Below are positions 2,721-54,681 of a stretch of 64,000 nt of DNA, piece after piece; within the stretch, counting starts at the first letter, position 1; every line of letters starts with the position of its first letter. The DNA lies in UHGV virus genome UHGV-0168042. The stretch is one strand, 5' to 3'. The notes under the pieces were generated by a model that saw nothing but the letters and a program-made list of their open reading frames with translations, ran no database searches and had not been told where the DNA came from. The translations under genes and the position numbers were made by a program. The DNA is from a virus.

Positions 2721-2750
2721 TGTTAGAAAATACATATTAATTATCTAACA
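2721..2750. promoter_or_regulatory. Operator-like inverted repeat TGTTAGA-N16-TCTAACA, 14-43 bp upstream of rdgC/dmt operon start
   Basis: Sequence TGTTAGAAAATACATATTAATTATCTAACA; perfect 7-bp arms, 16-bp AT-rich spacer; same architecture recurs at 4 other sites. Confidence 0.55.
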
Positions 2751-2766
2751 CAAATGGGTGCATTTT

Positions 2767-3420
2767 CTATCCTTTCTTGAAATCGAAGTTGCTAGCAGTG
2801 GCCTGAAAGGTTCCTCCTGCCTTGAAAGCTATGTCTCCGTTAGCGGTGACAGCAATATTTTCCCCTTTAACATTGATGTTGTTGGCTGATTTGACGTTAA
2901 CACTCCCTCCTGCATTCACGATTACATCAGCCGGACCAATGATATATATCTGCCCGGACTCATTCATGCCAATCCTTGAGCCTGCAGCCGTATTGGCAAT
3001 TTCATAGCCGCCACCAGCAGTTCGTACTTCAAGAATATTGTTGCGGTGAATAACGAAGTCTTTCGTTGCTGAGATTTGGGGGCGGGGAGGCGCTCCATCT
3101 ACTTCCGGCGGCGTCCAGCCGTTGCCTTTGCCAGATGCTTCTGGTGCAACGTTTGGAATTCCTCCCGGTGCATCCTGAGCGGCACCAACTATCATTGGGC
3201 GTCTGGTGTCTATTCGACCGTTAACATCTAAATAAGGAAACTCTACCCAGACCAGGTCACCTTTGACTGTGGGTACAAAAGCGTTTCCGATGGGTAACAG
3301 GTATTCCGCCCAGGGTAGATCGTCATCAGGAACGCCATTCCAGTCAGGTAAAACACGGACTTGAGCACGCATAAGCCCTGCCGGGTGCACAGTTCCAACA
3401 ATTTGCGCTCTACGCTTCAT
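2767..3420 (-). CDS. Phage baseplate central spike-like protein (gpV / Mu gp45-like)
   Basis: 217 aa; VKGDLVWVEFP...RRPMIVG resembles the N-terminal OB-fold motif of phage_base_V proteins; Gly-rich beta-helix-like C-terminus. Confidence 0.4.
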   Translation of the reverse strand: MKRRAQIVGTVHPAGLMRAQVRVLPDWNGVPDDDLPWAEYLLPIGNAFVPTVKGDLVWVEFPYLDVNGRIDTRRPMIVGAAQDAPGGIPNVAPEASGKGNGWTPPEVDGAPPRPQISATKDFVIHRNNILEVRTAGGGYEIANTAAGSRIGMNESGQIYIIGPADVIVNAGGSVNVKSANNINVKGENIAVTANGDIAFKAGGTFQATASNFDFKKG

Positions 3421-4397
3421 TTGTTCGGCACTCCCAATATCATTCGTGTTGTGTAGCCTACGCGGTCTTCAAAGTGCGCAACATTTTTTACTATCAGCTT
3501 ACGGGGCATTGATTCATCAATGCGGTTTTCCTGGTCATAGCGGTATACGATAATCTCTATCACCATCCCCGGTTTTATATCAGGATTGCCTGCGACTTCT
3601 ATATCCATTTTGGGGACGAGAGACAGCTGCATATTGCGAAGAGTTTCCATATCAGAGTCGGATATATAACGCACTGGGAGTGAGCTATCGCCATATTCGA
3701 CGTAGCCATCGGTCATGGAATACCCAACAAAACGATATTGATTCTTTGCTGTTGTCGCATGTTCCTGTTGGAGTAGGCGCATTTTGGACAAAGTGTATTC
3801 TGCTTTAGGGTTATTCCCCTCGTAGGTAAATGATGGCGTTTGCTTCATCAGATCAGCCAGGGTGTAAAAGTTAAATTCCCCCCGGCATACCCAACATAAT
3901 GCACCTTTGTCTCGCGCTATCTCCGAAAGCATTTTTGACGGTTTGTCACCGGCATTCAGATGATATGTAACTGCGCGTTTTAGCACGCTGCTGGTAATTT
4001 TAAGCTTGCCGGAATATGCCTTGAATATAGCGTCTGGTGTTTTGTTGGTATGTAAATTTGTGCGCGGGGAGGGGATCTTAAACCTGCGCACGTCTTCACT
4101 GACAGCAATAACGGTAACAACATCACCAGCCAGCATTGCAGACGTAACAAAGAAATCTGTTTTAAAAGTGCCTGCATTACCGTTTGGATCGCCCATTTCA
4201 GCCACCAGCGATGCACCGTATTTGGCTTTCCAGTCATCAATTACGGTGCCGGTAGCGTCATGAATTTCCAGTTTTAGCAAAGGGGCTTTGAGGCTGGTTT
4301 TTTCTACATATACTGCGGTAAAAATCCAGTCTCGTGGCACTTTGTTATCGTTAATGAGCACTGACTGTAGAAAATATTGTTGTAACTCCTGGGCCAC
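3417..4397 (-). CDS. Hypothetical phage protein, possibly baseplate/tail-associated
   Basis: 326-aa ORF overlapping the downstream spike-like gene by 4 nt; function inferred only from position. Confidence 0.35.
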   Translation of the reverse strand: MAQELQQYFLQSVLINDNKVPRDWIFTAVYVEKTSLKAPLLKLEIHDATGTVIDDWKAKYGASLVAEMGDPNGNAGTFKTDFFVTSAMLAGDVVTVIAVSEDVRRFKIPSPRTNLHTNKTPDAIFKAYSGKLKITSSVLKRAVTYHLNAGDKPSKMLSEIARDKGALCWVCRGEFNFYTLADLMKQTPSFTYEGNNPKAEYTLSKMRLLQQEHATTAKNQYRFVGYSMTDGYVEYGDSSLPVRYISDSDMETLRNMQLSLVPKMDIEVAGNPDIKPGMVIEIIVYRYDQENRIDESMPRKLIVKNVAHFEDRVGYTTRMILGVPNK

Positions 4398-4400
4398 TTA

Positions 4401-5168
4401 TCACCCCATAGATATCGAGGTTTCGGTAATAATACGTTTTGCGTCCAACTCCCATGCTGTGATCACGTCTGTAATCACACTTATCGGCGCTTGTGTGGCA
4501 TAAATACGCTCTTCTCCAATTGGTGCTGAAACATCCGTAAAGCCGACTTCTTTGGCATCCTGTATCGAGCAAATCAGCGGGACCGGGACACGAACAAGGT
4601 GAGTGGTTGCTTCAAATTGTGTACCTGTCATCAGGCGAAGCCGTGCGCCCAGCGAATTACACATCAGACTCATGGTCGCTTTATCAGTTGCCATTAACGT
4701 AACGTCATACGTCAGAATGGCCTGGGTGTATTCCAGTTCTGCTAAAGGCATTCCGGTATCTGGTTCGCAAAAACTGGCTACTTTTTTGCGGTCAATCTGC
4801 TGATCATCGTTGATATAATTGATATCCATAGTGCGTGAGATATTGACCAGGGGGAGAGCATCCCGGTTAATGTTCTGGTTTTCAGGTTTTCTCCCTTGCC
4901 CGGCATTTGCGCGACGAACTGCTTTAAGAAACTCGATCGCATTGTCGAAACGGGCCATATAGACACGCTCTGCTGGTGGACGATTCAGGAATGACGCAAA
5001 GCGTTTTTCTTCCGGCGCGGGGGCCACCAGTAAGATATCAGAAAAAATGTTGCTGATTAGCGTCGCAAACGCGTTATCCACGTTTTCAAAGCCCGTGGTC
5101 TGGAATTTTCCTGTGCGTAAGGTTTGCCATTCACCGGTTCGCGCCAGGAGGGTTTTATTTGAAGTCAT
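4401..5168 (-). CDS. Hypothetical phage protein
   Basis: 255-aa ORF in the same minus-strand operon. Confidence 0.35.
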   Translation of the reverse strand: MTSNKTLLARTGEWQTLRTGKFQTTGFENVDNAFATLISNIFSDILLVAPAPEEKRFASFLNRPPAERVYMARFDNAIEFLKAVRRANAGQGRKPENQNINRDALPLVNISRTMDINYINDDQQIDRKKVASFCEPDTGMPLAELEYTQAILTYDVTLMATDKATMSLMCNSLGARLRLMTGTQFEATTHLVRVPVPLICSIQDAKEVGFTDVSAPIGEERIYATQAPISVITDVITAWELDAKRIITETSISMG

Positions 5169-5968
5169 TCGATCACTCCGTTTTGAGTCGTATCAAAATT
5201 TCTGGCAGGTATGCAGTAGTAAAGCGAACCAACATGCTGTGTGCCGTAGCTAAAAATACGGTGCACGTACCACCAGCGGCGGGCTACGCCGTTTACCATC
5301 TCTTCATTCCATTCAAGAATTGAGCCGACGGGGACGTTATTTGCTGCAATACGCAGAATCAGAACATCATCGGTTAAGCCATCCTGCTCACCGTCTGCGT
5401 CAATCGCATGGAAAGAGTCACGCCCGTCAGGGTTATCCAGCACATAAACGATTTCAGGTTCCTGGTAAGTCAGTTCGCGTTGGTTGTTATCCAGTTCAGT
5501 GAATGACTCTTCTCCTGTTTCGTCGCTGACTACCCCATATGTGCCAACATCTGGTCGATATAAGAGAGCCTGAAACGCGTCTGGGCTGGATTCAATAATC
5601 AGCATCCAGTCTGCGCGGATTTGGTCGTTAAAGGCTTTATGCCCGTTATAGCGTGCTTTTAACTGTGGAGTCGGTTCTCTCCCAGCCAGGGAAGATGGAA
5701 GTATGGCTATATCTGATTCGCCAGCATCCGAAGTAAGGCCACCGTTGCTATCAGCAAAATTATCATGGCTATCAGCTTTGGCGGCGGGTTGCTCTTCCAG
5801 AATGCTGAATGAATCCGAACCGGTATTGCCATGTTCCGGCGCGCCTCCTGCATTCGCTTCAATCGGTGCTGGCGTTTCTCTCTGCGTGCTGTCATGTTCT
5901 GACTCCTTACTTGCCAGGTTTGCATCGTCAGCAAACCATTCGTCAAAACGGCCCATAAGCATCCTCAA
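5165..5968 (-). CDS. Hypothetical phage protein with acidic N-terminal region
   Basis: 267-aa ORF; D/E-rich N-terminal half; first gene of the 4-gene minus-strand operon. Confidence 0.35.
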   Translation of the reverse strand: MRMLMGRFDEWFADDANLASKESEHDSTQRETPAPIEANAGGAPEHGNTGSDSFSILEEQPAAKADSHDNFADSNGGLTSDAGESDIAILPSSLAGREPTPQLKARYNGHKAFNDQIRADWMLIIESSPDAFQALLYRPDVGTYGVVSDETGEESFTELDNNQRELTYQEPEIVYVLDNPDGRDSFHAIDADGEQDGLTDDVLILRIAANNVPVGSILEWNEEMVNGVARRWWYVHRIFSYGTQHVGSLYYCIPARNFDTTQNGVIE

Positions 5969-6118
5969 AGGTCGATCTGTCAGGTATCGAAAGGAAGATT
6001 TTCGGGAGATTGTGATTTTGGATGAAGGAGGGGGAATTCATAAAATGCACTTGCGCACAGTGCAACAGTGCGCTATAGTTATGGCATTCGGTAATCATCA
6101 CGGAGGATCAAATGACTA

Positions 6119-6421
6119 ATGACCAAAAAAATTAACATAAAGGATTTCAGGGATGCGTGGCTTGATGATTTTTTTGAATTTTCAACACCACATAGAAAGA
6201 TACCTCCTGATATTCATATGACATTGTCACGGAAGTTGGACATTATCAATGCCGCAACTACCTGTAAGGATTTAAGATCACCACCAGGTAATCGGTATGA
6301 GGAACTGTCAGGGAAGCTAAATGGCTATTCATCAGTAAGGGTGAATAAGCAATATAGGTTAATTTTTAAGTGGGTTAACGGAAAGGCCGAGGACTTGTAT
6401 CTCGACCCTCACAAATACTAA
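6119..6421 (+). CDS. higB: HigB-type toxin (RelE/ParE superfamily, plasmid maintenance killer protein)
   Basis: 100 aa; KDLRSPPGNRYEELSGKLNGYSSVRVNKQYRLIFKW matches HigB killer family; AT-rich; upstream near-palindrome TGCGCAC-N9-GTGCGC in the promoter region. Confidence 0.75.
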   Translation: MTKKINIKDFRDAWLDDFFEFSTPHRKIPPDIHMTLSRKLDIINAATTCKDLRSPPGNRYEELSGKLNGYSSVRVNKQYRLIFKWVNGKAEDLYLDPHKY

Positions 6422-6491
6422 AACAGATACCCGGTTACGGACCGGGTTCTGACCAGAGTCCACTTAATACGCACGCTAGTAAGGGCAAAAA

Positions 6492-6830
6492 ATGAAACAG
6501 GCAACCAGAAAACCGACGACCGTAGGTGATATCCTGCTGTACGAATACCTGGAGCCGTTAGAGCTGAAGATCAACGAGTTAGCAGAAATACTTCATGTTC
6601 ATCGTAACACCGTAAGTGCTCTTGTTAATAATAATCGTAAGCTAACGATGGATATGGCATATCGCCTGGCAAAAGCATTCGATACTTCTGTAGATTTTTG
6701 GATTAATCTCCAGACCGCAGTAGACCTGTGGGAAGTCGAAAATGACATGCGCGTTCAGGAAGAGTTAAGTCGTATCAATACTGCTGAAAAATTTATTTCT
6801 CAGCGGAACCTGAATAAAAAAGCAGCCTGA
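6492..6830 (+). CDS. higA: HigA-type antitoxin (XRE-family HTH, YbaQ-like)
   Basis: 112 aa; TVGDILLYEYLEPL...RNTVSALVNNNRKLT...FWINLQ pattern typical of HigA/VapI antidote proteins; directly downstream of higB. Confidence 0.75.
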   Translation: MKQATRKPTTVGDILLYEYLEPLELKINELAEILHVHRNTVSALVNNNRKLTMDMAYRLAKAFDTSVDFWINLQTAVDLWEVENDMRVQEELSRINTAEKFISQRNLNKKAA

Positions 6831-6851
6831 TATAGTAAAACACATACAAAA

Positions 6852-6881
6852 AGCCCACTTAACAAGTGGGCTTTCCTTTGG
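6852..6881 (+). terminator. Rho-independent terminator-like hairpin after higA
   Basis: AGCCCACTT-AAC-AAGTGGGCT followed by TTCCTTTGG; overlaps the GTG start proposed by the ORF track for the next gene. Confidence 0.4.
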
Positions 6882-6886
6882 AATTA

Positions 6887-7246
6887 ATGAACATTAAAAC
6901 TATCCGTACAGAACAAGATTATGAGGCCGCACTGCGTGCGGTAGAACCGATGTTCGATAACGAACCGGAAACGAACACCCCGGAAGGTAATTTCTTGGAG
7001 GTTATGTGTCTTCTCATTGAGGAGTACGAGAAAAAACATTACCCAATTGAGCCGCCATCACCTATTGAAGCCATTAAATCCCGTATGGAATAGCAAGGGT
7101 TGACCGTGAAGGATCTGGAACCGGCGATTGGTAAGTCAAATCGTGTTTACGAAGTGCTAAATGGGACACGAAATTTAACGTTACCTATGATTCGTCGTTT
7201 ACATTCCCAGTTTGGCATTCCTCTTGAAAGCCTAGTTGGTGTTTAA
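6887..7246 (+). pseudogene. HigA/YgjM-type XRE antitoxin-like gene interrupted by an in-frame amber (TAG) codon at 7091-7093
   Basis: Reading frame MNIKTIRTEQDYEAALRAVEP...IEAIKSRME-TAG-QGLTVKDLEPAIGKSNRVYEVLNGTRNLTLPMIRRLHSQFGIPLESLVGV continues in frame to TAA at 7244-7246; N-domain plus C-terminal HTH architecture matches YgjM-type HigA. Confidence 0.55.
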
Positions 7247-7306
7247 GTTTGGCAGTCTGGAGGGCCGATTTTACATAAAATCAAGGTTTAAATATTTGGT
7301 GATTAT

Positions 7307-8047
7307 ATGAGCACTGATTCATCAATAGAAAAGGAAAATGAAAAATCATCCGCCCAAAATCTGATAGAAGATGCTGTAAAAGATAAGTTGTTTAATAAGG
7401 TTTTTGCCTACATTTTTATTTCATTTTTAATTTCTAACTGGCGAGATATATTTATATTGTTGAAGTCAAAAGATGATGTTATGTATACATTATCTATGGT
7501 GTTTGTTGGGGAAAAGATTCCATTATTTGGGAATGTTTTTGTACCCTCATTCGTAGCTCATTTTGTCTTGCCTTTTATTTATGGTGTTGTGGCTTCAATA
7601 TTAGCCCCAATGTTAACTTTACTAATTTCTATGGTGACTGGCACAATATACGCTAAATTGAGAGAGATAGATAAAATTGAAGACAAAAAAGAACAAGTAA
7701 GAAAAATTAACAGAGACATTAATGATCTTACTAAGAAACGGAAAGACGTTGAAGAGCGTCTTGAAAAAGAAAAAGAAGAACATGAATCATTAAAAAGAAA
7801 GGTAGAAGAAGTTAGGGAACAGATTGAATGTGTGGATAGCGATATCCGTCATGTTATTAAATTATATAGAGAGAAAGGTGAGAGCTTAAATTCGTTGGAT
7901 GATTTTTATGAATTTTTTACTGCCGTGAAAAACTCATCTTTTCGTTCGGGTGATACAAATGACAGGGAGACACTTGAGGAGATTCTCTCAAAGCTTTCTG
8001 ATTCACTTGAAAAAATTAAATGCGATGCTAATAAAAAGGTGGGATAA
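7307..8047 (+). CDS. AT-rich membrane protein with C-terminal coiled coil (function unknown; candidate exclusion/defence cargo)
   Basis: 246 aa; two hydrophobic segments (FAYIFISFLISNW..., VPSFVAHFVLPFIYGVVASILAPMLTLLISMV) then K/E-rich heptad-like region; roughly 30% GC versus about 50% in flanks. Confidence 0.55.
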   Translation: MSTDSSIEKENEKSSAQNLIEDAVKDKLFNKVFAYIFISFLISNWRDIFILLKSKDDVMYTLSMVFVGEKIPLFGNVFVPSFVAHFVLPFIYGVVASILAPMLTLLISMVTGTIYAKLREIDKIEDKKEQVRKINRDINDLTKKRKDVEERLEKEKEEHESLKRKVEEVREQIECVDSDIRHVIKLYREKGESLNSLDDFYEFFTAVKNSSFRSGDTNDRETLEEILSKLSDSLEKIKCDANKKVG

Positions 8048-8068
8048 ACCCACCTTTGTTAATTTTTT
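8036..8068. terminator. Bidirectional rho-independent terminator between convergent genes
   Basis: GGTGGG-ATAAA-CCCACC hairpin flanked by A-run and T-run (TTTGTTAATTTTTT); stop codon of 7307-8047 lies in the loop. Confidence 0.5.
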
Positions 8069-9249
8069 ATGTACTCCATGAACATTTTTTCAGCTTGTGC
8101 TGGTGGTGTTCCAGCCATGACAAGCGCATCAATGAACGCCTGCTTCTTCAGTGCGAACTGATCGGCAAGGCGTTGCTGAAGTTCCTTATTTTTCTGTTTC
8201 TCACGTTGCAAGGCCGCTTCTTTTGCAGCCGCCCGTTTTTTCTGTGCGTCTGACAACTTTCTGGCCCTGGTCAATTGGTCACGTAGCTTGTCGATATTGC
8301 CGTTGTCCTTTGCCAGTTTTGTACTTAAAGCTGCCTGGCGCTTCTGATAGAGCCTCCATTCGCGTTTGGCGGCTTCAACGTTTGTTTTACTGCTTCGATT
8401 GCGATTAAACTCCTTCTCGTCTTCTTTTGAGAAGTGTTTGGTTGTACGGCGGCGATCGTCACCAAATGCAATTTGCGTTGCAGCCTTTTGTAGCGCACGA
8501 GCAATACTCATTTGCCAACTGGCGGACTGTAACCGCGTCATTGAGTGGATCACGTGTTTACAGGCGACGCCTTGCAGCTTCGGGTTGCGAACTTTTGGAT
8601 AGGCGTATTCTTTTGGCGGGGCCAGGGCAAAGTTACCCGCAGTAGCGATGTAACGATACCAGTATTGATGACGACCACAGTCACAATCGAAAGACACTCG
8701 CCCGGCGCACAGTGATTTAGTGATTTTGAGAGCTGATTTATCGTCTTCTGCGATGTCATCGACCATCTGATCCCATTCTTCAAAGCGTATCCGGACGATA
8801 TGGTGCTGGTGGACGGATATATCCGATGCTTCTACGCGGATATTAATCACGTTGTGGCGAAGAGATACGGGGGTAGCTCTTTTGATACCAGATCCGTCAT
8901 CCACGGCGTTATTTGCACGCTTAATATCGATTGCCTGGCTGGATGCCACCAGCTGGGCGTATGTGATGCCAGCCGTCTTGCTGTCATATTTTTCGCGTGT
9001 TTTACTCCGTAGCTTTTCGAAACCTTTCAGGTCGTCTCGCGTGAAGAACGTGCCGCCTTTTTTCTTCCCTAACTTGAGAATATCTTCGGCGGATTTGTTC
9101 CTCAGTCCACCTGGCGTCAGCGTCCGGTGAGCTTGTCGGCGCTTACGGGTTTGTTCTTTCCTGATAATCTCGAATATACGCGTGAAGTCCTTAGAGGACA
9201 GACCGTCAGTGATATAGCGCCCGTCCTGGTTTTTCAGGAAATCAGGCAT
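8059..9249 (-). CDS. Hypothetical protein with SWIM-type zinc-finger-like motif and basic coiled-coil C-terminus
   Basis: 396 aa; FDCDCGRHQYW...CKHVIH fits a CxC-Xn-CxH motif; C-terminal 120 aa K/R/E/Q-rich. Confidence 0.45.
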   Translation of the reverse strand: MPDFLKNQDGRYITDGLSSKDFTRIFEIIRKEQTRKRRQAHRTLTPGGLRNKSAEDILKLGKKKGGTFFTRDDLKGFEKLRSKTREKYDSKTAGITYAQLVASSQAIDIKRANNAVDDGSGIKRATPVSLRHNVINIRVEASDISVHQHHIVRIRFEEWDQMVDDIAEDDKSALKITKSLCAGRVSFDCDCGRHQYWYRYIATAGNFALAPPKEYAYPKVRNPKLQGVACKHVIHSMTRLQSASWQMSIARALQKAATQIAFGDDRRRTTKHFSKEDEKEFNRNRSSKTNVEAAKREWRLYQKRQAALSTKLAKDNGNIDKLRDQLTRARKLSDAQKKRAAAKEAALQREKQKNKELQQRLADQFALKKQAFIDALVMAGTPPAQAEKMFMEYIKN

Positions 9250-9571
9250 TTTCTATCTCCGGTTCCGCGCTTGCGTAATCACGGATCTTGTTCCTCAGCC
9301 ATGCCACATCAGGAAGAGTTAACGTGGTCCCTGCGGGCATTTCTTCCATTTCTGACTCATGGCCCACCAGCACCCGGAATACCCAGCGCAAATCTGCATT
9401 GCCATACGCCCTGTAGGCTGCAAGGTCTGAACGATATACTTCATCAATCTTTATCGTGTACTGGAAATTATCAGAGTGATACTCCGATACCCGCTTAATC
9501 ATTTCCTGGTGAAACAGCGCACGAAAAATATCGTCTTCAATGTACCTATCGTCGAGTCTGCTATAGCCCAT
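9242..9571 (-). CDS. Hypothetical protein
   Basis: 109-aa ORF overlapping the start of the SWIM-motif gene by 8 nt. Confidence 0.4.
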   Translation of the reverse strand: MGYSRLDDRYIEDDIFRALFHQEMIKRVSEYHSDNFQYTIKIDEVYRSDLAAYRAYGNADLRWVFRVLVGHESEMEEMPAGTTLTLPDVAWLRNKIRDYASAEPEIENA

Positions 9572-9764
9572 AACAAAGCCTCTCAGTCATAACCTGGTGG
9601 AAACTGTATGCAGGGTGTGAAATGCGAGAAACAGACAGGCCACCAGTTCAGGGGGATGTGGTTCATAAATCCCCTCACTGGTGACAAGTGACTTTCATTA
9701 ATCTTTATGCGGGGGCCAGCTTCATTTGCTGGCATTAGATTAAAAATTAAACGGAGTGAATGAC

Positions 9765-9899
9765 ATGGATGTTATCTTCGAATTATTAATGCTAATTGAT
9801 CTGTTTATGAACGCTTCATTGACCACGCAAATACTGGCGTCAATATTTTTGTTACTCTTCTACCTGGTATTGAGGGAGTTAACAAAGCTACTAATGTGA
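9765..9899 (+). CDS. Small hydrophobic peptide (44 aa), possible membrane peptide/toxin
   Basis: ATG preceded by GGAG 8 nt upstream; MDVIFELLMLIDLFMNASLTTQILASIFLLLFYLVLRELTKLLM; below ORF-track length cut-off; ends 1 nt before the convergent gene's stop. Confidence 0.25.
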   Translation: MDVIFELLMLIDLFMNASLTTQILASIFLLLFYLVLRELTKLLM

Positions 9900-10553
9900 T
9901 CAAAGTATCACGGTATCTTCATCAACTTCTTTCCCAGCCAGTGACTTTGGCTGGGAGGTGCCTGCTTTAACTTTTTCATGCCCAATAATGGACAGGAACG
10001 AAGCGAGTATGCCTGTTTTTTGCTCTTTCTCGACTGTACCGATCATCTGCTCTACGTAATCCGCACTGGCAACGTTGTGGTATACGGTCGCGTAGCAACA
10101 CAGGACCATCAGAATATGTTCCGGCCTGATATCCTGCCAGTTCACCCGGTAGACTTCTTCTCCGTTACCGTTGTATTCGGTGTCAACGATGGAGTCAGGG
10201 ATTTCGAAAGCACCTTTGTTATTTTGCGGCAGGGATAATAGCTTCTGGAGTTTTAACTCTCTGTATCTTTCCATCCCGACGATGATTGCTGCTCTGCCAT
10301 CGGCATGACGGGTCTTGAGAGTCACCTGGCTTGCTCCGGTGCCAGCGGAGATCGTTGGCGTTATTTCGTCTACCAGTACCTTAAATTTGCTTTTCCGCAG
10401 GGCTGCTATAGCTGGAGGAATTTTTTGCTTTTGCTCCAATGCTGACGCGGGAAGGGGTTTTACTTCGTTAATAATGAGAGCACCGTCTTTCAGTATTGCA
10501 GTGAGCATTTGAGGCTTGCTGGTGGTCAGGCTGAATATTGCGATCTTTTCCAT
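9900..10553 (-). CDS. Hypothetical protein
   Basis: Track ORF 9900-10595; preferred start is internal Met (MEKIAIFSL) with GGAGGA RBS about 8 nt upstream, downstream of a terminator. Confidence 0.45.
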   Translation of the reverse strand: MEKIAIFSLTTSKPQMLTAILKDGALIINEVKPLPASALEQKQKIPPAIAALRKSKFKVLVDEITPTISAGTGASQVTLKTRHADGRAAIIVGMERYRELKLQKLLSLPQNNKGAFEIPDSIVDTEYNGNGEEVYRVNWQDIRPEHILMVLCCYATVYHNVASADYVEQMIGTVEKEQKTGILASFLSIIGHEKVKAGTSQPKSLAGKEVDEDTVIL

Positions 10554-10579
10554 TGTCCTTCCTCCACGGATGACGGATA

Positions 10580-10606
10580 CAAAAAAAGGCCGCACATGGC
10601 GGCCTG
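10580..10606 (-). terminator. Rho-independent terminator on minus strand, immediately upstream of the RBS of 9900-10553
   Basis: Minus strand reads GGCCGCCATGTGCGGCC then TTTTTTT; implies a short leader transcript or sRNA ending here. Confidence 0.45.
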
Positions 10607-10821
10607 CTTTGGCGTTATGACTCCCTACCGCGCTTCGGCTGAAAGTTAATCGTCAAAAGAACCTTCAACGGGAGCCGTTAGCGCGATGGATTATGTGCAG
10701 TTTGTGATTTCCAAAATAGTGTCAACCACTTTTTGTGGATTTTATTTTTTGACCGAAATTTGGCCTAAATCATGTTGATGTAGTTGATTGTTTTTGTAAC
10801 ATAAAACTTCATTTTGTTTAC

Positions 10822-11445
10822 ATGAAGGACGGTGTAGTGAAGTTAAGGGTTTTAGGGACCGCGCTCGCGGCTATGTTGGGATGCGTATCTGTTAATACAG
10901 CCAATGCAACTGCGTTACCTGCACAATTCAGGGCAGGGCAGCAGGTTATGAATAACGCTGGTGGGGATCATTCACAAGCGGCAATTATGGACTTTTGCAA
11001 GAGAGAGGGCATTCCATTACGGCCTGTTGGAACTCAGTTTATTGGTAAAACTGACTTTTGCGTTTTTGCATATACAGCATATCTGACGGACAAAGCTATA
11101 ACAAAAACAGGTTATTCAACCAAAGATACTCTTTCCAGATTAAGTCAGGGATGGCAGCAATTCGAAGTGTATCGCCAGCAAGGATTAGGTGAGTTATTAC
11201 AACCACTTTTTATGCTTGCGTTGGTGCCCGAGGGGCAGCAATTTTTGGTTAAAAAGGGAATGCTTCGCCAAAGTGATATTGCCGGGTTCGATAGCATGAT
11301 GGCTTATGAGCGCAAACTAACCGAGCAGCGAAATAAAAAACCATCTGCTTCATGTGTGCAAAGTAAAACAGCAGAATACAGTGCAGTAGCCGGGCCTTTA
11401 GCCAAACAAATGGCAGAGCAATGGTGTAAAAAATACGGGCAATAA
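10822..11445 (+). CDS. Secreted protein with N-terminal signal peptide (unknown function)
   Basis: 207 aa; MKDGVVKLRVLGTALAAMLGCVSVNTANA signal-like N-terminus; AT-rich promoter region upstream. Confidence 0.5.
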   Translation: MKDGVVKLRVLGTALAAMLGCVSVNTANATALPAQFRAGQQVMNNAGGDHSQAAIMDFCKREGIPLRPVGTQFIGKTDFCVFAYTAYLTDKAITKTGYSTKDTLSRLSQGWQQFEVYRQQGLGELLQPLFMLALVPEGQQFLVKKGMLRQSDIAGFDSMMAYERKLTEQRNKKPSASCVQSKTAEYSAVAGPLAKQMAEQWCKKYGQ

Positions 11446-11465
11446 GTTACGCAGCGGAGGCAGAA

Positions 11466-11858
11466 TTGAAAAGATTGGCTATTGCTTTACTGGCGTCTTT
11501 CCCTTTGATCGCGAGCGCCGGAAATTTACAAGTTAAGTGCGGTCGGTTTGATATAAAAATCTATCCAGATGCCATATTTCTGAATGGGAATAAGGTTGAT
11601 AACGCACACCGAAAAACTGAATCTGACGTAATGAGCTATGTGTTCCAGGAGTATGCGGAGATGGGGGGAACTTACACGCTGTACTCGCTGGATGTTCCTT
11701 CTCGCGGTGATATGACATTATCCCATCAATGGCAGAACGCCGATGGCGAAGCTCTGCGCGAGGTTAAAACAGAAAAATGTGGCACTTTCCATTCTTTTAA
11801 AGGGAAAGCGCCAAATGTTAAATCTGTGCTTGAAAAACAGCGCGCAGGTGAGCTTTAA
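11466..11858 (+). CDS. Small secreted protein with signal peptide (unknown function)
   Basis: 130 aa; MKRLAIALLASFPLIASA then mature domain; RBS GGAGG upstream. Confidence 0.5.
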   Translation: MKRLAIALLASFPLIASAGNLQVKCGRFDIKIYPDAIFLNGNKVDNAHRKTESDVMSYVFQEYAEMGGTYTLYSLDVPSRGDMTLSHQWQNADGEALREVKTEKCGTFHSFKGKAPNVKSVLEKQRAGEL

Positions 11859-12166
11859 ACACCTTTAACCACGGAGATGCCGTTTCCTGCACGATAGCGG
11901 CGGGGAACGGAATTCTCCATCAGGTCACGAATTACTCCCGCCTCATGTAGTTCCTCTGTTTCCCAGTATCTGTTTGTCACCAGATCGAGGCTGGCTATGA
12001 CCTTGTGCCGGTCATTCGGCATAGCCAATTTTTCTGCTATAACCATCAGTGAAAACTCTTCATCCAGTAGGATTTGATACCAGACTTTTGACAGTTCCAA
12101 CTCTCTAATGAGGGTGAAGCGCCGCTCAAGTGTGGCGGCAGAATAAGTGAAATCTATTTTTTTCAT
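11855..12166 (-). CDS. Hypothetical protein
   Basis: 103-aa ORF downstream of the Rha gene on the minus strand. Confidence 0.4.
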   Translation of the reverse strand: MKKIDFTYSAATLERRFTLIRELELSKVWYQILLDEEFSLMVIAEKLAMPNDRHKVIASLDLVTNRYWETEELHEAGVIRDLMENSVPRRYRAGNGISVVKGV

Positions 12167-12225
12167 CGTGCGGATAATCCGATTATTTGGCAGTTAAATC
12201 CCCGGCGTCGCCGGGGATGCAGCAT

Positions 12226-13167
12226 TTAACTAACAATCCAGTCCATAGCAATAACATCCTCTGGAGCTAAATCAATAGCATGGATTTTCCCGTCACGGAT
12301 GGTGCGCCAGTGCTTTCGTGATCCACCTTCGGGCCACACCCATATACCTTCAGGCCAGGAAGAACGACGACACACTGTTGCGTATCCAGTCCTGATCTTC
12401 TCTCTGACGGTATGTAGTGACAGATTATCCTTTGGGCTTTCAGGCACAGGATGGTGGATTGCCTGAAACATCCCCATCTTTGGATGATACCAGCGTTTAT
12501 TGCGTGGTTCTGCCTCCGACATCACCTGCTTAAAGGCTTTCCGGAAGGGGGCCAGGGCCACAATGGAGCGTCGCGCAAGCAAACCATCTGGAGTTAAAAA
12601 CTCATGCGTATCGGTGGGAATCCGGAAAGCGTTAACCAGGTTGCGACATTTGGCTTCAGTCAGGCCACATTTCGCCGCCAGCTGGCGGTAGCCAATGTAG
12701 CCTTCCGGAATATTGCCTTTCTTTATTTGCTCGAGTGTTTCAGCGACCATCGATACTTGTGCTGATACCTCGGCTACCTGGGCATTTACGGCGTTGATCC
12801 GGCGTTCATGCTCAAGATGCATTTGCGCCATTTCAGCCAGGATTTCGGCTTTTGATTTTAACTGTACCCGGGCATTCTCCAGTTCGCGCCAGCGGTCCAC
12901 CAGCCGGGCGGTGAATTCCGGAGAGAGCTGCGCGACGACAATGATGCTGTCTCGTTTTCCTTGTTCGCCTTCAAATATGTAAGCCTTGGAAAATCGACGA
13001 GGGCCAACTGATTGTTTATTTTCAATTTCCACAGATTGTGGAAATTGGATCACACTCTTTTTAGCCAGTGTTTCGATAGTTCTCTTCACACTATCTTGGC
13101 GACTTCCTACCAGTTCCGCGATCTCAATGCTGGTCATTGTCGCTTTTTGAGAGATGGACAGATTCAT
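12226..13167 (-). CDS. Rha-family phage regulatory protein (antirepressor-like), copy 1
   Basis: 313 aa; MTSIEIAELVGSRQDSVKRTIETLA N-terminus typical of Rha family; start ATG overlaps stop of upstream Icd-like gene (ATGA). Confidence 0.65.
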   Translation of the reverse strand: MNLSISQKATMTSIEIAELVGSRQDSVKRTIETLAKKSVIQFPQSVEIENKQSVGPRRFSKAYIFEGEQGKRDSIIVVAQLSPEFTARLVDRWRELENARVQLKSKAEILAEMAQMHLEHERRINAVNAQVAEVSAQVSMVAETLEQIKKGNIPEGYIGYRQLAAKCGLTEAKCRNLVNAFRIPTDTHEFLTPDGLLARRSIVALAPFRKAFKQVMSEAEPRNKRWYHPKMGMFQAIHHPVPESPKDNLSLHTVREKIRTGYATVCRRSSWPEGIWVWPEGGSRKHWRTIRDGKIHAIDLAPEDVIAMDWIVS

Positions 13168-13382
13168 CAGTGCACCTCCACGCAGTTCATTGGCAGATTC
13201 CAGTAATTGAGGATCTCCATCGCATCAAGAGTGAAGCGTGCGGCAAAAATGCAGGGTTCTTCAGGAAGGTATGAACGAGCTTCTGCTTCGGTTGCAGCCA
13301 TGACGCAGATATACAGGTGTTTTTGGCAGGAATAGAAACGCCAGATAAATTCAGAATGAGTTGGGGTAGGGATAGTAGCCAT
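13167..13382 (-). CDS. icd: Icd-like host cell division inhibitor family small protein, copy 1
   Basis: 71 aa; EFIWRF motif shared with second copy at 54099-54323; translationally coupled to Rha. Confidence 0.45.
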   Translation of the reverse strand: MATIPTPTHSEFIWRFYSCQKHLYICVMAATEAEARSYLPEEPCIFAARFTLDAMEILNYWNLPMNCVEVH

Positions 13383-13694
13383 ATTGGCAGCCTCCTTTTG
13401 CTAATTTAAGGAGCTACCGCGTGAGGTTCCAATCTCAATGGCGGTAGCACTGACTGGGTTGGAACTACCGGCGCAAAAGGGAACCGGCCTGCCTTTCGGC
13501 AGCCCAGCCAGCACTACCATTGATCTCTGAGCTAAACGCTACGTATGGCTGTGCGATGGCATGACACAAGAAAAGACGCTTTCGGCGTCTGTGTCGCCTT
13601 TTGCATTATCCGGGGTTCCAATCCCGGCACCCGTTTTTCTAAGGTGCCGTAGAAATATACCCCACGATAATGCCAGGGCGCAACAGTCAGTATT

Positions 13695-13862
13695 TTATGC
13701 TTTGGCGGATTTCTTCCGGGCTTGCTTGCAGGCGTAGGCCATTGCTTTAGCTTTCACTTCATCCAGCTTCCCGGTAATCACTTCTTTTCCGAGAGTGACA
13801 AACCAGTCATAGCAACCGCCAGTAATGTTCTTGATTTGAAAGTTGAGGTAGCGAACAGTCAT
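13695..13862 (-). CDS. Small hypothetical protein (55 aa)
   Basis: ATG with GGGGGAG RBS 6 nt upstream; MTVRYLNFQIKNITGGCYDWFVTLGKEVITGKLDEV...; below ORF-track cut-off. Confidence 0.3.
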   Translation of the reverse strand: MTVRYLNFQIKNITGGCYDWFVTLGKEVITGKLDEVKAKAMAYACKQARKKSAKA

Positions 13863-14182
13863 TTTGACTCCCCCAGCGCGAATAAAGAATGCAGATTATC
13901 GCGTGAGTGGTGGACGACGAGTGATGGGAAAAGACTGTAGTTGTTCATAGTGTAGTGACTCCTTGCTTTCGGAGCCGCCATCGACTGTTCCACGGTCTGG
14001 TGGCGGCGCAATAAAGGCTGGAACACCGTGAGTCAACGGGGGCTTTTCAGCCACCTATATTGCACCGCCATAGGTATGGCGGGGGCAATAATACGAAAAA
14101 CTAAACAGTTTGTCTCAAAAAGTTGACCGGTGTGCCAATCGGTAGTGAATGTACATCGGAGAAATTTACAATTCAACTTAAA

Positions 14183-14212
14183 ATGTTAGAAAACTAATTT
14201 ATTAATTCAATC
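14183..14212. promoter_or_regulatory. Operator-like motif ATGTTAGAAAACTAATTTA (degenerate full site) overlapping the ref stop codon
   Basis: Near-identical 19-mer recurs in reverse orientation at about 43721-43740 and a 15-mer at about 33307-33323. Confidence 0.4.
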
Positions 14213-14772
14213 GCCATCTGATACAACGCCATTTCATCGGCATTGTGCCGTATGAAATCTGCTTTTCCGCCTATTTTTCCATCAGCATGAACAGGGACCA
14301 GCCAGGGATATTGTTCTCGGACCTCGGCTGGCGCTGCGTACTGGTGGTGCCATTTACACAAAGGGAGGACATATTTATGTGCGTTCTCTGCCGTTCTCCC
14401 GAAGATATGGTGCAGGGATACCACTGGGCTATGTTGCCCGTGAATATGGCAGGCAATGCAGGGGAGAGTACCGATAGCGGTCTGTATCCGGCGTTCATCG
14501 GCTGTGAGTGATCTGCCCTTCAGGCCGCGTGACGTGCGTGTTTTTTTGGGCGGAGCGGATACAGCTTTATCTTTTCTCCGCTGTTCATATTGCTTTGCTT
14601 TTTCAATTTTCTTTTGCCGATATTCAGGCGATGCGGCTTTTTCTCTCGCTCGCTGCTGCTGGCGTTGAGCTTGTTGAAGGCGCTTTGCCCTTTGTTCCTC
14701 TCGCCAGGCTGGGTCAGCCAATTTTTGCATGGCTTTTTGTCTCTGTTTCTCCCAATAGCTCTGTTTCTGCAT
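14194..14772 (-). CDS. ref: Ref-family recombination enhancement nuclease (HNH-like)
   Basis: 192 aa; CIACHIHGQHSPVVSLHHIFGRTAENAHKYVLPLCKWHH zinc/HNH-like motif; K/R/Q-rich N-terminus. Confidence 0.6.
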   Translation of the reverse strand: MQKQSYWEKQRQKAMQKLADPAWREEQRAKRLQQAQRQQQRAREKAASPEYRQKKIEKAKQYEQRRKDKAVSAPPKKTRTSRGLKGRSLTADERRIQTAIGTLPCIACHIHGQHSPVVSLHHIFGRTAENAHKYVLPLCKWHHQYAAPAEVREQYPWLVPVHADGKIGGKADFIRHNADEMALYQMAIELIN

Positions 14773-14820
14773 GATGGCTGCCTCTTACTTTTCAGCTATT
14801 TTTCTATGATTGATCAAAAC

Positions 14821-14850
14821 AGTTAGATATTCAAAATTGATTTTCTAACA
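14821..14850. promoter_or_regulatory. Operator-like inverted repeat GTTAGA-N16-TCTAAC upstream of ref
   Basis: AGTTAGATATTCAAAATTGATTTTCTAACA, about 50-78 bp upstream of the ref ATG. Confidence 0.55.
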
Positions 14851-15044
14851 CAAAACATTAATATCATTCCTGATAACTGTTTGGAGGACATGATGCTTAT
14901 AGCTTTAAGTGCGATCCACCAGCCATCTGTGAATGAGATTGGCCTGTTCTATGTGTTGTTTTTCGGGGCGTTGGCGCTACTTGAACTTGGTATTGAGCTT
15001 TTCGCAGTGCTTATGTTTTGCGTCACGATTTTGGGGAAATTTTG

Positions 15045-15668: not shown

Positions 15669-15982
15669 GCTGGCGGGGATGGGGAAGGGCGGAAATCATG
15701 ATACTCCGCCAGTGCGCCGGGACTATGACAGTCGTGAGTATTGGGAGGCTGATCGGGCGTACCGGTAGTGCTGTCAGAACCAAAGCGCGGCAGCTGCGGA
15801 TCTGCATGATTCTGAAAGGAGACTTTCACCCGTCAGCCAAATACCGGCAGGGCGATATAGAACTGGCACGGCAGCTTCATCGGTGTGGTGTTCCCCGCCG
15901 TGAGATCGCAGAAAAACTCGAAATGCCCTTGAGCATGATTAATCAGTACGTTTATTTCGAAAGGAGAGTACATGAAGTCTGA
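15665..15982 (+). CDS. Small HTH-like regulatory protein
   Basis: 105 aa; overlaps upstream stop by 4 nt; ...GVPRREIAEKLEMPLSMINQYV resembles an HTH. Confidence 0.4.
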   Translation: MSWRGWGRAEIMILRQCAGTMTVVSIGRLIGRTGSAVRTKARQLRICMILKGDFHPSAKYRQGDIELARQLHRCGVPRREIAEKLEMPLSMINQYVYFERRVHEV

Positions 15983-16867: not shown

Positions 16868-16875
16868 GGCTCCGC

Positions 16876-42463: not shown

Positions 42464-42491
42464 TCGAATTGTGATTTTAGATTTCTAACAC
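42464..42491. promoter_or_regulatory. Operator-like site ATTCGA-N16-TCTAAC (left half degenerate)
   Basis: Spacer ATTGTGATTTTAGATT resembles the spacer of the 20075 site; a second half-site TTTTCTAACAC lies at about 42325-42335. Confidence 0.35.
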
Positions 42492-42492
42492 A

Positions 42493-43701: not shown

Positions 43702-43720
43702 TGCTGTTCCCGTTACTTTG

Positions 43721-43740
43721 TTAAATTAGTTTTCTAACAT
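43721..43740 (-). promoter_or_regulatory. Operator-like motif ATGTTAGAAAACTAATTTAA (minus orientation) upstream of 42493-43701
   Basis: 19/20 identical to the site at 14183-14202. Confidence 0.45.
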
Positions 43741-43814
43741 ATTTTATTAGTTTGATGACGGTATCGGAAGATGCAATAAACAAAAAACCCGCTAATTGGC
43801 GGGTTTTTATGCAA

Positions 43815-44325: not shown

Positions 44326-44820
44326 TTAATCAAGACAAACATACTCCGTGATAGCTTTTATGGCTTCAGCGGCACTGCGCGCCTCAAAGCAGTAGTAACC
44401 GGCTTCAGTGAGGCGAGTCATCCAGACGAGTTGTTCGGGAGTCAGGCGATTTCTCCCATGTTTCATCTCAATGCGCATTCCGTGGTATCCCCCACAAGCA
44501 AGGTCTATAGAAAGATCGGGATATCCCTTCTTTTGGCCCTCTGCCACCATTTTTATTGCCGTCCTTATGCCTCGCAGGCCACCGTTTGGAGTGGCGTGAG
44601 TATGCTCATACACATAACGCATATTGCGATACAACCAGTCCAGGACGCGAACCTGCTCGTAATGCTCATGGTTCCTTTTGATTAGATCTGGGTTTTTCTC
44701 CAGTTCTCTAAGAGCTGCGGCATGTGGGGATGTTTCAGAATATTCACTGCGACGCCTTCTCTTTCGCGCTATTTTTCTAACACACCCATTGATACTGAAT
44801 ATGCGAAATAATAACAACAA
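44326..44820 (-). CDS. VRR-NUC domain nuclease-like protein (start uncertain)
   Basis: C-terminal YPDLSIDLACGGYHGMRIEMKHGRNRLTPEQLVWMTRL resembles VRR-NUC (PD-(D/E)xK); track start is TTG and an operator half-site TTTTCTAACAC lies inside the first 15 codons. Confidence 0.5.
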   Translation of the reverse strand: MLLLFRIFSINGCVRKIARKRRRRSEYSETSPHAAALRELEKNPDLIKRNHEHYEQVRVLDWLYRNMRYVYEHTHATPNGGLRGIRTAIKMVAEGQKKGYPDLSIDLACGGYHGMRIEMKHGRNRLTPEQLVWMTRLTEAGYYCFEARSAAEAIKAITEYVCLD

Positions 44821-53163: not shown

Positions 53164-53194
53164 AAAAGCCCCGGCCAGGCCGGGGCATCACGCT

Positions 53195-53395
53195 TCAAGT
53201 CACCATCCAATCATTACCGATTATATCAGCCGTCGATAAATCAACTTCCCGGATCTGGAGTCCATTAATACAAAACCATCCGGTAGTAGAGTAATTATCA
53301 GGCCAGGCCCATACACCAACACTCCATGCTTTACGGCGGCACACTTCAGCCTGTCCTTCCCTGATTTTTTTTACCGCCTGCATGATGTCCATCAC
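53195..53395 (-). CDS. Small hypothetical protein
   Basis: 66 aa; start overlaps stop of Rha copy 2; shares KKxxRxxW motif with the C-terminus of 29839-30516. Confidence 0.3.
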   Translation of the reverse strand: MMDIMQAVKKIREGQAEVCRRKAWSVGVWAWPDNYSTTGWFCINGLQIREVDLSTADIIGNDWMVT

Positions 53396-54099
53396 TCACC
53401 TCCCCAACCGATCACCTGGAATTGCCCCATTTTGGGGTGATACCAGCGTTTTCCTCGGTGTTCAGCCTCCGACATCATCCGGTTAAAAGCATTCATGAAG
53501 GGAGATAAGGCCACGATGGAACGACGCGACAATACCCCCTCTGGAGTTAAAAACTCATGCGTATCGGTGGGAATCCGGTAAGCGTTAACCAGGTTGCGAC
53601 ATTTGGCTTCAGTCAGGCCGCATTTCGCCGCCAGCTGGCGGTAGCCAATGTAGCCATCTGGCATATTGCCCTTCTTGATTTGCTCGACGGTTTCAGCGAC
53701 CTGGCTAACCTTTGACTCAACAGCATGAAGCCGCTTTTGCTGCTGAACTGCATTTGCAGCCATTGCGGCGATCATCTCTATTTCGGTCAACGGCTGGCGT
53801 ACTTGTTCTTCCAGTTCGCGCCAGCGGTCCACCAGCCGGGCAGTAAACTCAGGACAAAGCTGTGCGACTACAATGATACTGTCTCGTTTGCCTTGCTCGT
53901 CGCTAAATCGGAACACCTGAATTAATCGAGAACGCCCCATTACATCTATTTTTGGTTCATCCTCAATTTGAGGACGAACAATAACGCCGGATTCGGCTAA
54001 TGTTTCAATGGTACGCTTCACATTGTCATGACGTTTTCCCACCAGCTCCGCGATCTCAATGCTGGTCATTGATGGCTTTTCAAGAATGCAGATATCCAT
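53392..54099 (-). CDS. Rha-family phage regulatory protein (antirepressor-like), copy 2
   Basis: 235 aa; MTSIEIAELVGKRHDNVKRTIETLA; central region near-identical to copy 1 (KRDSIIVVAQL, TARLVDRWRELE, GYIGYRQLAAKCGLTEAKCRNLVNA). Confidence 0.65.
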   Translation of the reverse strand: MDICILEKPSMTSIEIAELVGKRHDNVKRTIETLAESGVIVRPQIEDEPKIDVMGRSRLIQVFRFSDEQGKRDSIIVVAQLCPEFTARLVDRWRELEEQVRQPLTEIEMIAAMAANAVQQQKRLHAVESKVSQVAETVEQIKKGNMPDGYIGYRQLAAKCGLTEAKCRNLVNAYRIPTDTHEFLTPEGVLSRRSIVALSPFMNAFNRMMSEAEHRGKRWYHPKMGQFQVIGWGGE

Positions 54100-54323
54100 C
54101 AGTGTGCCTCCGCAATGCCGGGATTGGTAATATTGCGATACCAGGGATTAGTGTTTGGTTGTGGGGAAGTAGAGAAACGACCAGTAAGAACACCATGCTG
54201 ATCAGGGATCAGAGAACGGGCTTCTTTTTCGGTTGCGGCAATTGCGAAGTGATCGCAGTGTTTTTGCAGGGAGTGGAAACGCCAGATGAATTCTGGACGT
54301 GAGCAAGGATTGGCATTAACCAT
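54099..54323 (-). CDS. icd: Icd-like small protein, copy 2
   Basis: 74 aa; EFIWRFHSLQKH; coupled to Rha by ATGA overlap. Confidence 0.45.
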   Translation of the reverse strand: MVNANPCSRPEFIWRFHSLQKHCDHFAIAATEKEARSLIPDQHGVLTGRFSTSPQPNTNPWYRNITNPGIAEAH

Positions 54324-54653
54324 AGTTACGGCCTCACTAACAGGTTTAACAACCTGCTACCCGCTGTCAAACAGGTGGCAGGACGTGACAGGGTTGACAG
54401 ACTGGCGTTAGTGAAACCAGCAGGCCGAAGCCTCCCCATCACGCCCCACCATAATTCGGGCGTAACGCGGTTTACGGACACAAAAATACCGCAATATCGG
54501 AAATCTGCGGTTGTCCGCACTAACATTCAGGCTGTCAAACCTGGTCGCAGAATTTGCTACGACGGCATGAATATAAGCCTGAAAACATGGAAGATCAACT
54601 AAAAATTTCAGCAATGGATGACTTCAGTCGATGATGCAGATCATACATTCCGA

Positions 54654-54681
54654 TTTAGAAACAGCAAATTAATTTTCTAAC
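54654..54681. promoter_or_regulatory. Operator-like inverted repeat TTTAGA-N16-TCTAAC upstream of icd/rha copy 2
   Basis: TTTAGAAACAGCAAATTAATTTTCTAAC, about 330 bp upstream of the icd-like ATG. Confidence 0.5.

Follow-up and report, generated by a model that had tools for sequence, protein, structure and literature searches.

A dispersed motif in a D6-like phage-plasmid

The 64,000-nucleotide stretch of virus genome UHGV-0168042 analyzed here (hereafter the window) represents, judged by sequence comparison, about two thirds of an Escherichia coli phage-plasmid of D6-like type, related to P1, because its positions 13000-21000 match Escherichia phage D6 with 94.9% identity over 77% of their length and E. 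coli plasmids of about 92–94 kb (for example pF374-2) with 95–98% identity over 99% of their length. Genes of the window were named via the D6 annotation. The gene of principal interest, c1 (33336-34373, plus strand), adjoins rox and dre and occupies the immC position between dre/rox and pacB; lpa-pacA-pacB lie at 34402-37663, repL at 54737-55699, ref at 14194-14772 and hrdC/rdgC at 1802-2707. Our subject is a short motif scattered among these genes, which a first-pass annotation had proposed as a partly palindromic operator, GTTAGA-N16-TCTAAC, of the phage's master repressor.

Three of the five full palindromes listed in that annotation (2722-2749, 14822-14849 and 20076-20103) are exact, and none arose in 100 dinucleotide shuffles of the window; the remaining two are degenerate, with one mismatch at 54654-54681 (TTTAGA...TCTAAC) and two at 37742-37769 (ATTAGA...CCTAAC). 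In the relatives L007 and L008 both places are occupied by palindromes that are perfect or nearly so. Allowing up to two mismatches gave seven matches against 1.45 expected, the additional degenerate pairs being those at 14185-14212 and 42462-42489. Listing all contexts of TCTAAC revealed that the recurring word is longer than a half-site and asymmetric, aAATTAGTTTTCTAACAya. The annotated asymmetric copies were recovered at 14182-14198 (minus strand), 33306-33322 (minus) and 43725-43741 (plus), as were all of the half-sites reported at 31899, 42328, 42484, 44776 and 55874. The frequency is far above chance in the window: TTCTAACAY occurs 12 times against 0.67 expected, and the 17-mer ATTARTTTTCTAACAYA, with up to three mismatches, 14 times against 0.62. 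An unbiased k-mer census of the window ranks TGTTAGAAA(A) first after Chi, the same rank that the C1 operator word ATTGCTCTAA holds in the P1 census. The basic unit is asymmetric, about 17–19 bp long, ATTARTTTTCTAACAYA, with the invariant core TTTCTAACA, and a logo built from 57 distinct sites in eight sequences carries information from −9 to +9 around this anchored core.

To describe the pairing of units we scored the position of the second hexamer at each site, for which the background partner match is 1.6 of 6. A partner is found at the exact 16-bp spacing at seven loci (hrdC, ref/orf88, pdcB, lpa, the tRNA side of pmgS, icd module 2 and, weakly, the ref 3′ end), while six loci (31896, 33306, 42320, 43725, 44768 and 55871) have none, with 0–2 matches of 6. 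Since the mean match to GTTAGA peaks solely at an offset of −22, the palindromes and the asymmetric forms are both real. In the palindrome two 17-mers meet head to head without a gap, spanning 34 bp with hexamer centers 22 bp apart, and relatives have perfect versions of pairs that the window carries in degenerate form (the lpa pair in L007, the tRNA-side pair in L008). A purely palindromic operator model was rejected, given the six sites without a partner half and the restriction of the partner signal, at its fixed −22 offset, to seven loci.

The 33336-34373 gene encodes a C1-family protein

The gene that had been put forward as the candidate repressor encodes a protein of 345 residues that is 99.4% identical to the product of D6 gene 1, annotated as "prophage repressor, similar to P1 C1". 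By sequence comparison this product is a C1-family protein: it matches phrog_1678 (E = 2e-169), as do P1 C1 (E = 3e-140) and the C1 proteins of Leclercia and Citrobacter, and its database homologs carry PF27008 (Phage_P7_repressor_C1). Pairwise BLASTP of the window protein with P1 C1 gave 21% identity over 240 residues (E = 2e-8). A search of the local Pfam-A copy detected neither a helix-turn-helix (HTH) nor any other Pfam domain in it, and the sequence has no hit in the PDB. The C1 family is small: clustering of 1.84 billion proteins at 50% leaves 129 representatives of it. About 150 plasmid records carry a c1 of the window type, and D6-like phage-plasmids are common in E. coli and Salmonella.

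Sites are largely intergenic on the whole D6 replicon and coincide with the P1 regulon

A position weight matrix (PWM) scan of the complete D6 genome found 14 sites. The predicted enrichment between genes is borne out on this whole replicon: 11 of its 12 TTCTAACAY copies are intergenic, although intergenic annotation makes up just 10.2% of the genome (binomial P = 1.4e-10), and shuffled intergenic sequence would yield 0.23 copies where these 11 are seen. Sites are found in front of c1, lpa, repL, the two c4-icd-ant modules, ref, the divergent orf88-ppp operon, pdcB-pmgU and hrdC-dmt, and further copies precede orf117-dut-isaA, the tRNA region, pmgS, pmgM and, in the part of D6 outside the window, orf52. 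The contexts previously assigned to the full palindromes (rdgC/dmt, ref, the 20147 operon, the second icd/rha module, and lpa, which is the gene preceding the terminase) are right. So is the proposal that the gene set is the one controlled by C1 in P1, where RefSeq annotates C1 operators at matching places, namely Odmt, Oref, Omat, Oc4, OrepL, Obanab, OpmgRa/b, OpmgT, Oppp, Olpa and Oc1a-e. The GenBank records of D6 contain no annotated operator features.

The motif covaries with the repressor clade

When the region upstream of c1 was aligned for six genomes whose C1 proteins are 68–100% identical, the flanks could not be aligned and three islands, TTTTCTAA, TCCTTTACTCA and TTTTATGTTAGAAAA, were invariant. 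The first of these lies at a weak unit (33220-33236) and the last at the 33306-33322 operator. The island between the two c1-proximal units, TCCTTTACTCA(C) at 33260-33271, is invariant in the six genomes as well and may belong to the c1 promoter (as its TTTACT −35) or to another binding site. Contigs whose C1 is just 51% or 44% identical keep TTTTCTAACA at equivalent loci, and the relatives with C1 proteins of 44–100% identity share the D6-type sites.

Beyond this range the word is a different one. The D6-type PWM has no hits in P1 or in the Leclercia plasmid pE1_003, and GCTCTAAT is present once in the window as against nine times in half of P1. The plasmids L010 (Leclercia pE1_003), L013 (Pantoea pPA-MXU-90) and L014 (from Citrobacter), with C1 proteins about 30% identical, carry a third word, (A/T)ATTCTAAGG, at orthologous positions, one following cre and the others ahead of c1, lpa, rdgC, ref, pmgS and VRR-NUC, and the operator word of P1 is TGCTCTAAT. 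In the count matrix each operator word is enriched in its own lineage only. Because ATTCTAAGG takes the same places in plasmids with a C1 of about 30% identity, and P1 has TGCTCTAAT, the motif covaries with the repressor clade, and we regard this sequence comparison as the strongest available argument that the C1 homolog reads the motif. In Pantoea some copies of the ATTCTAAGG class pair as TCTAAG-N6-CTTAGA, which is the bivalent geometry of P1. Another word, GTGATCAC, was tried as a Leclercia operator and rejected, as it clusters at the pac/Dam-site region and inside genes.

These comparisons bear on two earlier statements about the motif. Its description as a distinct, partly palindromic operator holds as to distinctness, the D6-type matrix being without hits in P1; the palindromes are head-to-head pairs of a unit that is itself asymmetric. 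The core said to be shared with the P1 consensus is not statistically supported, the consensus comparison (P = 0.44) being indistinguishable from chance; TCTAA nonetheless recurs in all three operator types.

Proposed mechanism and alternative explanations

We consider it probable, at roughly 80%, that the motif is the operator set of the master lysogeny repressor and that this repressor is the C1-family protein encoded at 33336-34373, whose binding to the sites is a prediction. According to this proposal one repressor molecule would occupy each unit, the units standing singly or as head-to-head pairs on or beside the σ70 promoters of genes that are to be silent in the plasmid prophage. The silenced set would comprise repL, lpa (coding for the late-gene activator), ref, hrdC-dmt and the two c4-icd-antirepressor modules, besides a pair of accessory early operons, the tRNA region, pmgS/pmgM and, by autoregulation, c1 itself. 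When bound, the repressor would block RNA polymerase or act as a roadblock, and inactivation of the repressor by antirepressor would then free all of these operons together. We observe the sites, with their statistics, intergenic placement and conservation, as well as the covariation of motif and repressor clade and the protein's place in the C1 family; binding, stoichiometry, promoter occlusion and co-derepression we infer.

In a looser promoter scan, candidates with consensus-level −35 and −10 sequences overlap most of the units. The units cover the −35 and spacer of the candidate promoters at orf88, ref and pdcB, cover the −10 and start region at hrdC and pmgS, and flank the candidate c1 promoter on both sides. 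P1 shows an equal variety of operator–promoter geometries.

Several observations weigh against this interpretation. Promoter assignments come from the looser scan and are consensus −35/−10 matches only, and a stringent scan of positions 2000-21000 placed a single site at an operator (TAGAAA-18-GATAAT at hrdC) and returned fewer promoter-like sites than shuffled sequence. Orientation of the units relative to the downstream gene is not uniform, those at 43725 and 54668 pointing against it, and the unit at 44768-44784 is the sole core copy inside an annotated D6 open reading frame. C1 variants of 44–100% identity keep one core, so that covariation is seen only at deep divergence, and at that depth the third class is well supported in Citrobacter only (12 copies of (A/T)ATTCTAAGG against 2.4 expected), the ATTCTAAGG counts in Leclercia and Pantoea being within shuffle range. 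Lastly, no Lxc co-repressor is reported for D6-like elements (PMC6799933), so that details of the P1 model may not transfer to them.

Even taken together, the other explanations we considered are unlikely. The motif might be bound by another regulator, either a phage protein (for example the small DNA-binding protein of the early operon, or an antirepressor-linked factor) or a host protein, with the C1 homolog reading something else. The early operon does encode an annotated DNA-binding protein, and a core that stays constant while C1 drops to 44% identity would fit a different, more conserved protein too. However, the k-mer census holds no competing dispersed motif, TGTTAGAAA leading the non-Chi words just as the C1 operator word does in P1; the sites occupy the places of the P1 C1 operators, with one in front of c1 itself; and where C1 falls to about 30% or 21% identity the motif changes and the positions are retained. 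We therefore judge this explanation improbable. Still less probable is that the word forms part of a specialized promoter or activator site, for example for Lpa or for an early-gene activator, as might be supposed from the overlap of units with −35/spacer or −10 regions and from the TAACAT within the unit, which can act as a −10-like hexamer. Against it, units are found in either orientation and at differing places with respect to candidate promoters, some of them downstream, an arrangement typical of operators; moreover, lpa itself has a site in front of it, as in P1, where C1 represses lpa. A reading as Lpa-dependent late promoters was rejected, for the motif is missing from the regions upstream of the late operons (pacA, gene 7, gene 26, darB, prt, ddrB and lydA) and the P1-type late −22 boxes differ in sequence (AAGTGACTT).

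Very unlikely indeed is the idea that recombination between mosaic phage-plasmids has preserved the copies as module-boundary sequences, or that they are chance products of AT-rich intergenic composition. The sites do lie at junctions of mosaic variable blocks whose flanks diverge sharply, but 17 bp is too short to drive homologous exchange, the intergenic composition predicts 0.23 copies where 11 are observed, the 16-bp partner spacing is strict, and distant lineages have different motifs at equal positions.

Individual candidate operators and their P1 counterparts

Four of the proposed operators accompany genes of the left part of the window. The bivalent operator at 2719-2752, in the gap between gene 5 and hrdC/rdgC, comprises units at 2719-2735 (minus strand) and 2736-2752 (plus) around the perfect palindrome 2722-2749. 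The candidate leftward hrdC promoter TAGAAA-18-GATAAT (−35 at 2769-2764, −10 GATAAT at 2745-2740) overlaps its right unit. Its P1 counterpart is Odmt, in front of uhr-hrdC-dmt, and Citrobacter has ATTCTAAGG at the equivalent position. At 14182-14198 (minus strand) a strong unit overlaps the ref stop codon and has a degenerate partner at 14199-14215 (4 of 6 matches); it is upstream of orf86/85, the C4 RNA, icd and ant of module 1, with candidate leftward promoters TTGAAT-16-TAACAT (14210-14183) and TTGAAT-17-TACATT (14176-14148). The P1 counterparts of the 14182-14215 site are Omat, which likewise lies over the ref 3′ end, and Oc4. The divergent control region of ref and orf88-ppp contains the bivalent operator 14819-14852 (palindrome 14822-14849), counterpart of Oref and Oppp. 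Its center, TTCAAAATTGA, comprises two back-to-back −35 boxes, of the candidate promoters P(orf88) TTGATT-16-TAATAT and P(ref) TTGAAT-17-AATCAT, and for this reason one operator pair could silence both divergent promoters; the whole palindrome, GTTAGAnATTCAAAATTGAnTTTCTAACACA, is unchanged in four genomes whose flanks have diverged. The fourth operator, 20073-20106, is a bivalent one between ppp and the pdcB-like/DUF968 operon, with the palindrome at 20076-20103, a strong unit at 20090-20106 (plus strand) and a candidate promoter TTGATT-17-TATTTT at 20085-20113, and it is kept in D6, L007 and L009.

A monovalent operator at 31896-31912 (minus strand, partner 1 of 6) lies over the dre/cre stop codon upstream of the orf117-dut-isaA operon and is kept in D6, L007, L008, L009 and L015; Leclercia and Citrobacter have ATTCTAAGG at the equivalent position. 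The weak unit GGTTTTCTAAA at 33220-33236 (plus strand, 21.6 bits in the PWM) is about 100 bp upstream of c1, and the monovalent operator at 33306-33322 (minus strand), 14–30 bp upstream of the c1 start codon, is the probable autoregulation site of c1, with Oc1a to Oc1e as its P1 counterparts. The candidate c1 promoter TTTACT-17-TAAATT (33263-33291) sits between these two units. Upstream of lpa the bivalent operator 37739-37772, counterpart of Olpa, has its strong unit at 37739-37755 (minus strand), and its palindrome (37742-37769), degenerate in the window, is perfect in L007 and near-perfect in L008; Leclercia and Citrobacter have ATTCTAAGG upstream of their lpa homologs.

The pmgS neighborhood holds four sites. 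A monovalent unit at 42320-42336 (plus strand, partner 0 of 6), in the untranslated stretch that separates pmgS from the tRNA genes, is kept in D6, L007, L008, L009 and L015. The bivalent operator 42459-42492 (palindrome 42462-42489, strong unit 42476-42492 on the plus strand) abuts the pmgS stop codon beside a candidate leftward promoter towards the tRNA genes, TTGATT-17-TAGAAT (42458-42430), whose −35 the unit adjoins. Its palindrome is perfect in L008, and it has a P1 analog in Obanab, likewise bivalent, which precedes the tRNA/ban operon. The monovalent operator at 43725-43741 (plus strand), 24 bp upstream of the pmgS start, has the perfect consensus ATTAGTTTTCTAACATA (no mismatches, 31.7 bits) and overlaps both a candidate leftward −10, TAAAAT (43746-43741), and a rightward promoter-like sequence, TTGTTA-16-TATTTT; OpmgRa and OpmgRb are its P1 counterparts. 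About 40 nt beyond this rightward promoter-like site is a strong hairpin followed by a T-run (43787-43812), and the region 43718-43812 could give rise to a short, C1-controlled plus-strand RNA antisense to the pmgR-pmgS junction. A further monovalent unit, at 44768-44784 (plus strand), lies either upstream of pmgM (VRR-NUC) or at its 5′ end and is kept in L007, L008 and L015; Leclercia and Citrobacter have their own motif upstream of VRR-NUC.

Two operators flank repL. Between repL and the C4/icd/ant module 2 is the bivalent operator 54651-54684 (54654-54681, left hexamer TTTAGA; strong unit 54668-54684, plus strand), the counterpart of P1 Oc4, formerly Op51. Upstream of repL, which serves lytic replication, is the monovalent operator 55871-55887 (minus strand), the counterpart of OrepL, formerly Op53; Citrobacter has ATTCTAAGG at the analogous position. 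We regard as doubtful a weak unit, ATTGTTTTTGTAACATA, at 10787-10803 (plus strand, three mismatches, 18 bits), which lies upstream of a simB-like gene and overlaps a candidate promoter TTGATG-16-TAACAT.

A predicted Tus-like fold for C1

The D6-type C1 proteins and those of the lineages with about 30% identity have about 60 additional C-terminal residues that are predicted to be helical. Fold searches with an AlphaFold 2 (AF2) model of D6-type C1 and with a model of P1-type C1 returned Tus as the sole match in both cases, and these models predict that the two types share a Tus-like three-dimensional fold. Sequence searches gave no link between C1 and Tus (no PDB hit, hhalign probabilities of 1–3%, and PF05472 in none of nine weak family hits), and since no sequence or profile similarity was detected we do not file C1 as a member of the Tus family (PF05472). 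The weak hhalign alignments consistently set C1 residues 84-176 on Tus residues 146-248. On the DNA side, the complement of TerB, read beside tus, shares TTAGTT..AACATA with the D6-type unit, a resemblance that is not significant against shuffles (P = 0.077); the P1 and third operator types show no similarity to TerB. The literature that we searched contains no paper linking Tus and C1.

In the Tus–Ter structure (1ECR) a single Tus molecule sits on an asymmetric site of about 23 bp, and a monomer on an asymmetric site is also the binding mode long inferred for C1. The predicted fold fits single-molecule binding to an asymmetric site, and a Tus-like C1 would explain the asymmetric operators because Tus itself is a monomer on an asymmetric site. 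We suggest tentatively, at somewhat less than even odds, that the C1 proteins of P1-like phage-plasmids are structural relatives of Tus that act as single-molecule clamps on asymmetric sites, with at least three operator specificities (TGCTCTAAT in P1, TTTCTAACA in D6 and ATTCTAAGG in Leclercia, Citrobacter and Pantoea) that share the TCTAA core and differ in pairing geometry. The extra C-terminal helices may serve the D6-type head-to-head pairs, with their hexamer centers 22 bp apart. On a Tus-like reading, the central β-strands of C1, on which the invariant residues R157/R159 and P86/P88 are located, would be placed in the major groove over TCTAAC.

Other features of the window

The window has two complete ImmI-type modules (13437-13647 and 54371-54576), in each of which icd and an antirepressor follow a C4 antisense RNA; the antirepressor is of Rha/KilA type in module 1 and of Roi/Rha type in module 2, and an operator precedes each module. 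Rfam places the C4 RNAs at 13437-13524 and 54371-54456 (both on the minus strand); module 1 contains an isrK-like element (13569-13647) and module 2 the c4-a1b1 targets (54524-54576, minus strand). Genes for tRNAs are found at 41182, 41104 and 39191 (minus strand). P1-type late-promoter −22 boxes (AAGTGACTT-like) occur at 9686-9694, 42375, 46632 and 63148, and only that at 9686, which lies in the gene 26/mat intergenic region and is followed by TAATCT, resembles a real late promoter. Chi (GCTGGTGG) is the most over-represented 8-mer of the window, whose 64 kb contain 42 copies (28 on the minus strand); it is likewise in excess in P1 and the plasmids from Leclercia, Pantoea and Citrobacter. A perfect LexA-box-like sequence, CTGTATAAATGAACAG, is located at 27721-27736, just 5′ of a humD/umuD-like gene (27758-28147), as in P1; a single such match is within chance for the whole window.

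The conjugative IncFIB multiresistance plasmid pK91 of Salmonella Typhi (NZ_CP029871.1, L006 in our set) holds the remnant of a D6-like element. It retains hot, humD, phd/doc, dut, a dre-like gene and a c1 that is 68% identical to that of the window and has an upstream operator, and it is truncated by IS26 beside c1.

Relation to known systems

P1 C1 binds 22 dispersed operators with the asymmetric 17-bp consensus ATTGCTCTAATAAATTT and controls repL and lpa (PMC8546580). The system proposed here is of the same kind as that of P1 and P7 C1, with a different specificity and pairing geometry. The two have in common the repressor family (phrog_1678/PF27008), asymmetric operators of about 17 bp scattered over the genome in mono- and bivalent forms, the control of c1, lpa, repL, c4-icd-ant, ref, hrdC-dmt, the tRNA/ban region and pmgR/S, and an operator on the ref 3′ end. 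In contrast, the recognition sequence is ATTARTTTTCTAACAYA rather than ATTGCTCTAATAAATTT; bivalent operators here are head to head and abutting (34 bp, hexamers 16 bp apart), whereas those of P1 are tail to tail with a 6-bp overlap (28 bp, TCTAAT-N6-ATTAGA); the repressor has 345 residues including the extra C-terminal helical region, compared with 283 residues in P1 C1; there are no coi/imcAB genes upstream of c1; and there are two ImmI modules where P1 has one.

The proposed repressor resembles λ CI-type dimeric HTH repressors in its role as a master lysogeny repressor acting on promoters and in the two-fold symmetry of some of its sites. It differs from them in that the sites are spread genome-wide and not clustered in one immunity region, and its predicted fold is not an HTH. 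A palindromic operator of a dimeric HTH repressor was in fact rejected, given partner matches of only 0–2 of 6 at six sites and the lack of an HTH hit in the local Pfam search. From Tus–Ter, which is the only match to the predicted fold of D6-type and P1-type C1, the system is set apart by the lack of detected sequence homology and by its proposed role in transcriptional repression rather than fork arrest. The searchable full-text literature gave no account of D6 operators or of the motif in this context; the primary D6 papers lie outside that search, and an earlier description is therefore possible.

The operator word amounts to a map of the lysogeny regulon in D6-like phage-plasmids and to a sequence-based way of calling immunity types among P1-like elements, and the repressor with its 17-bp operator would provide engineering parts orthogonal to P1 C1. 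If C1 is indeed Tus-like, this would supply a structural rationale for the asymmetric operators of P1 described in 1987 (reference list of PMC8546580), C1 roadblocks might depend on orientation, as Tus does, and a phage repressor family would be tied to the fold of a replication-fork barrier.

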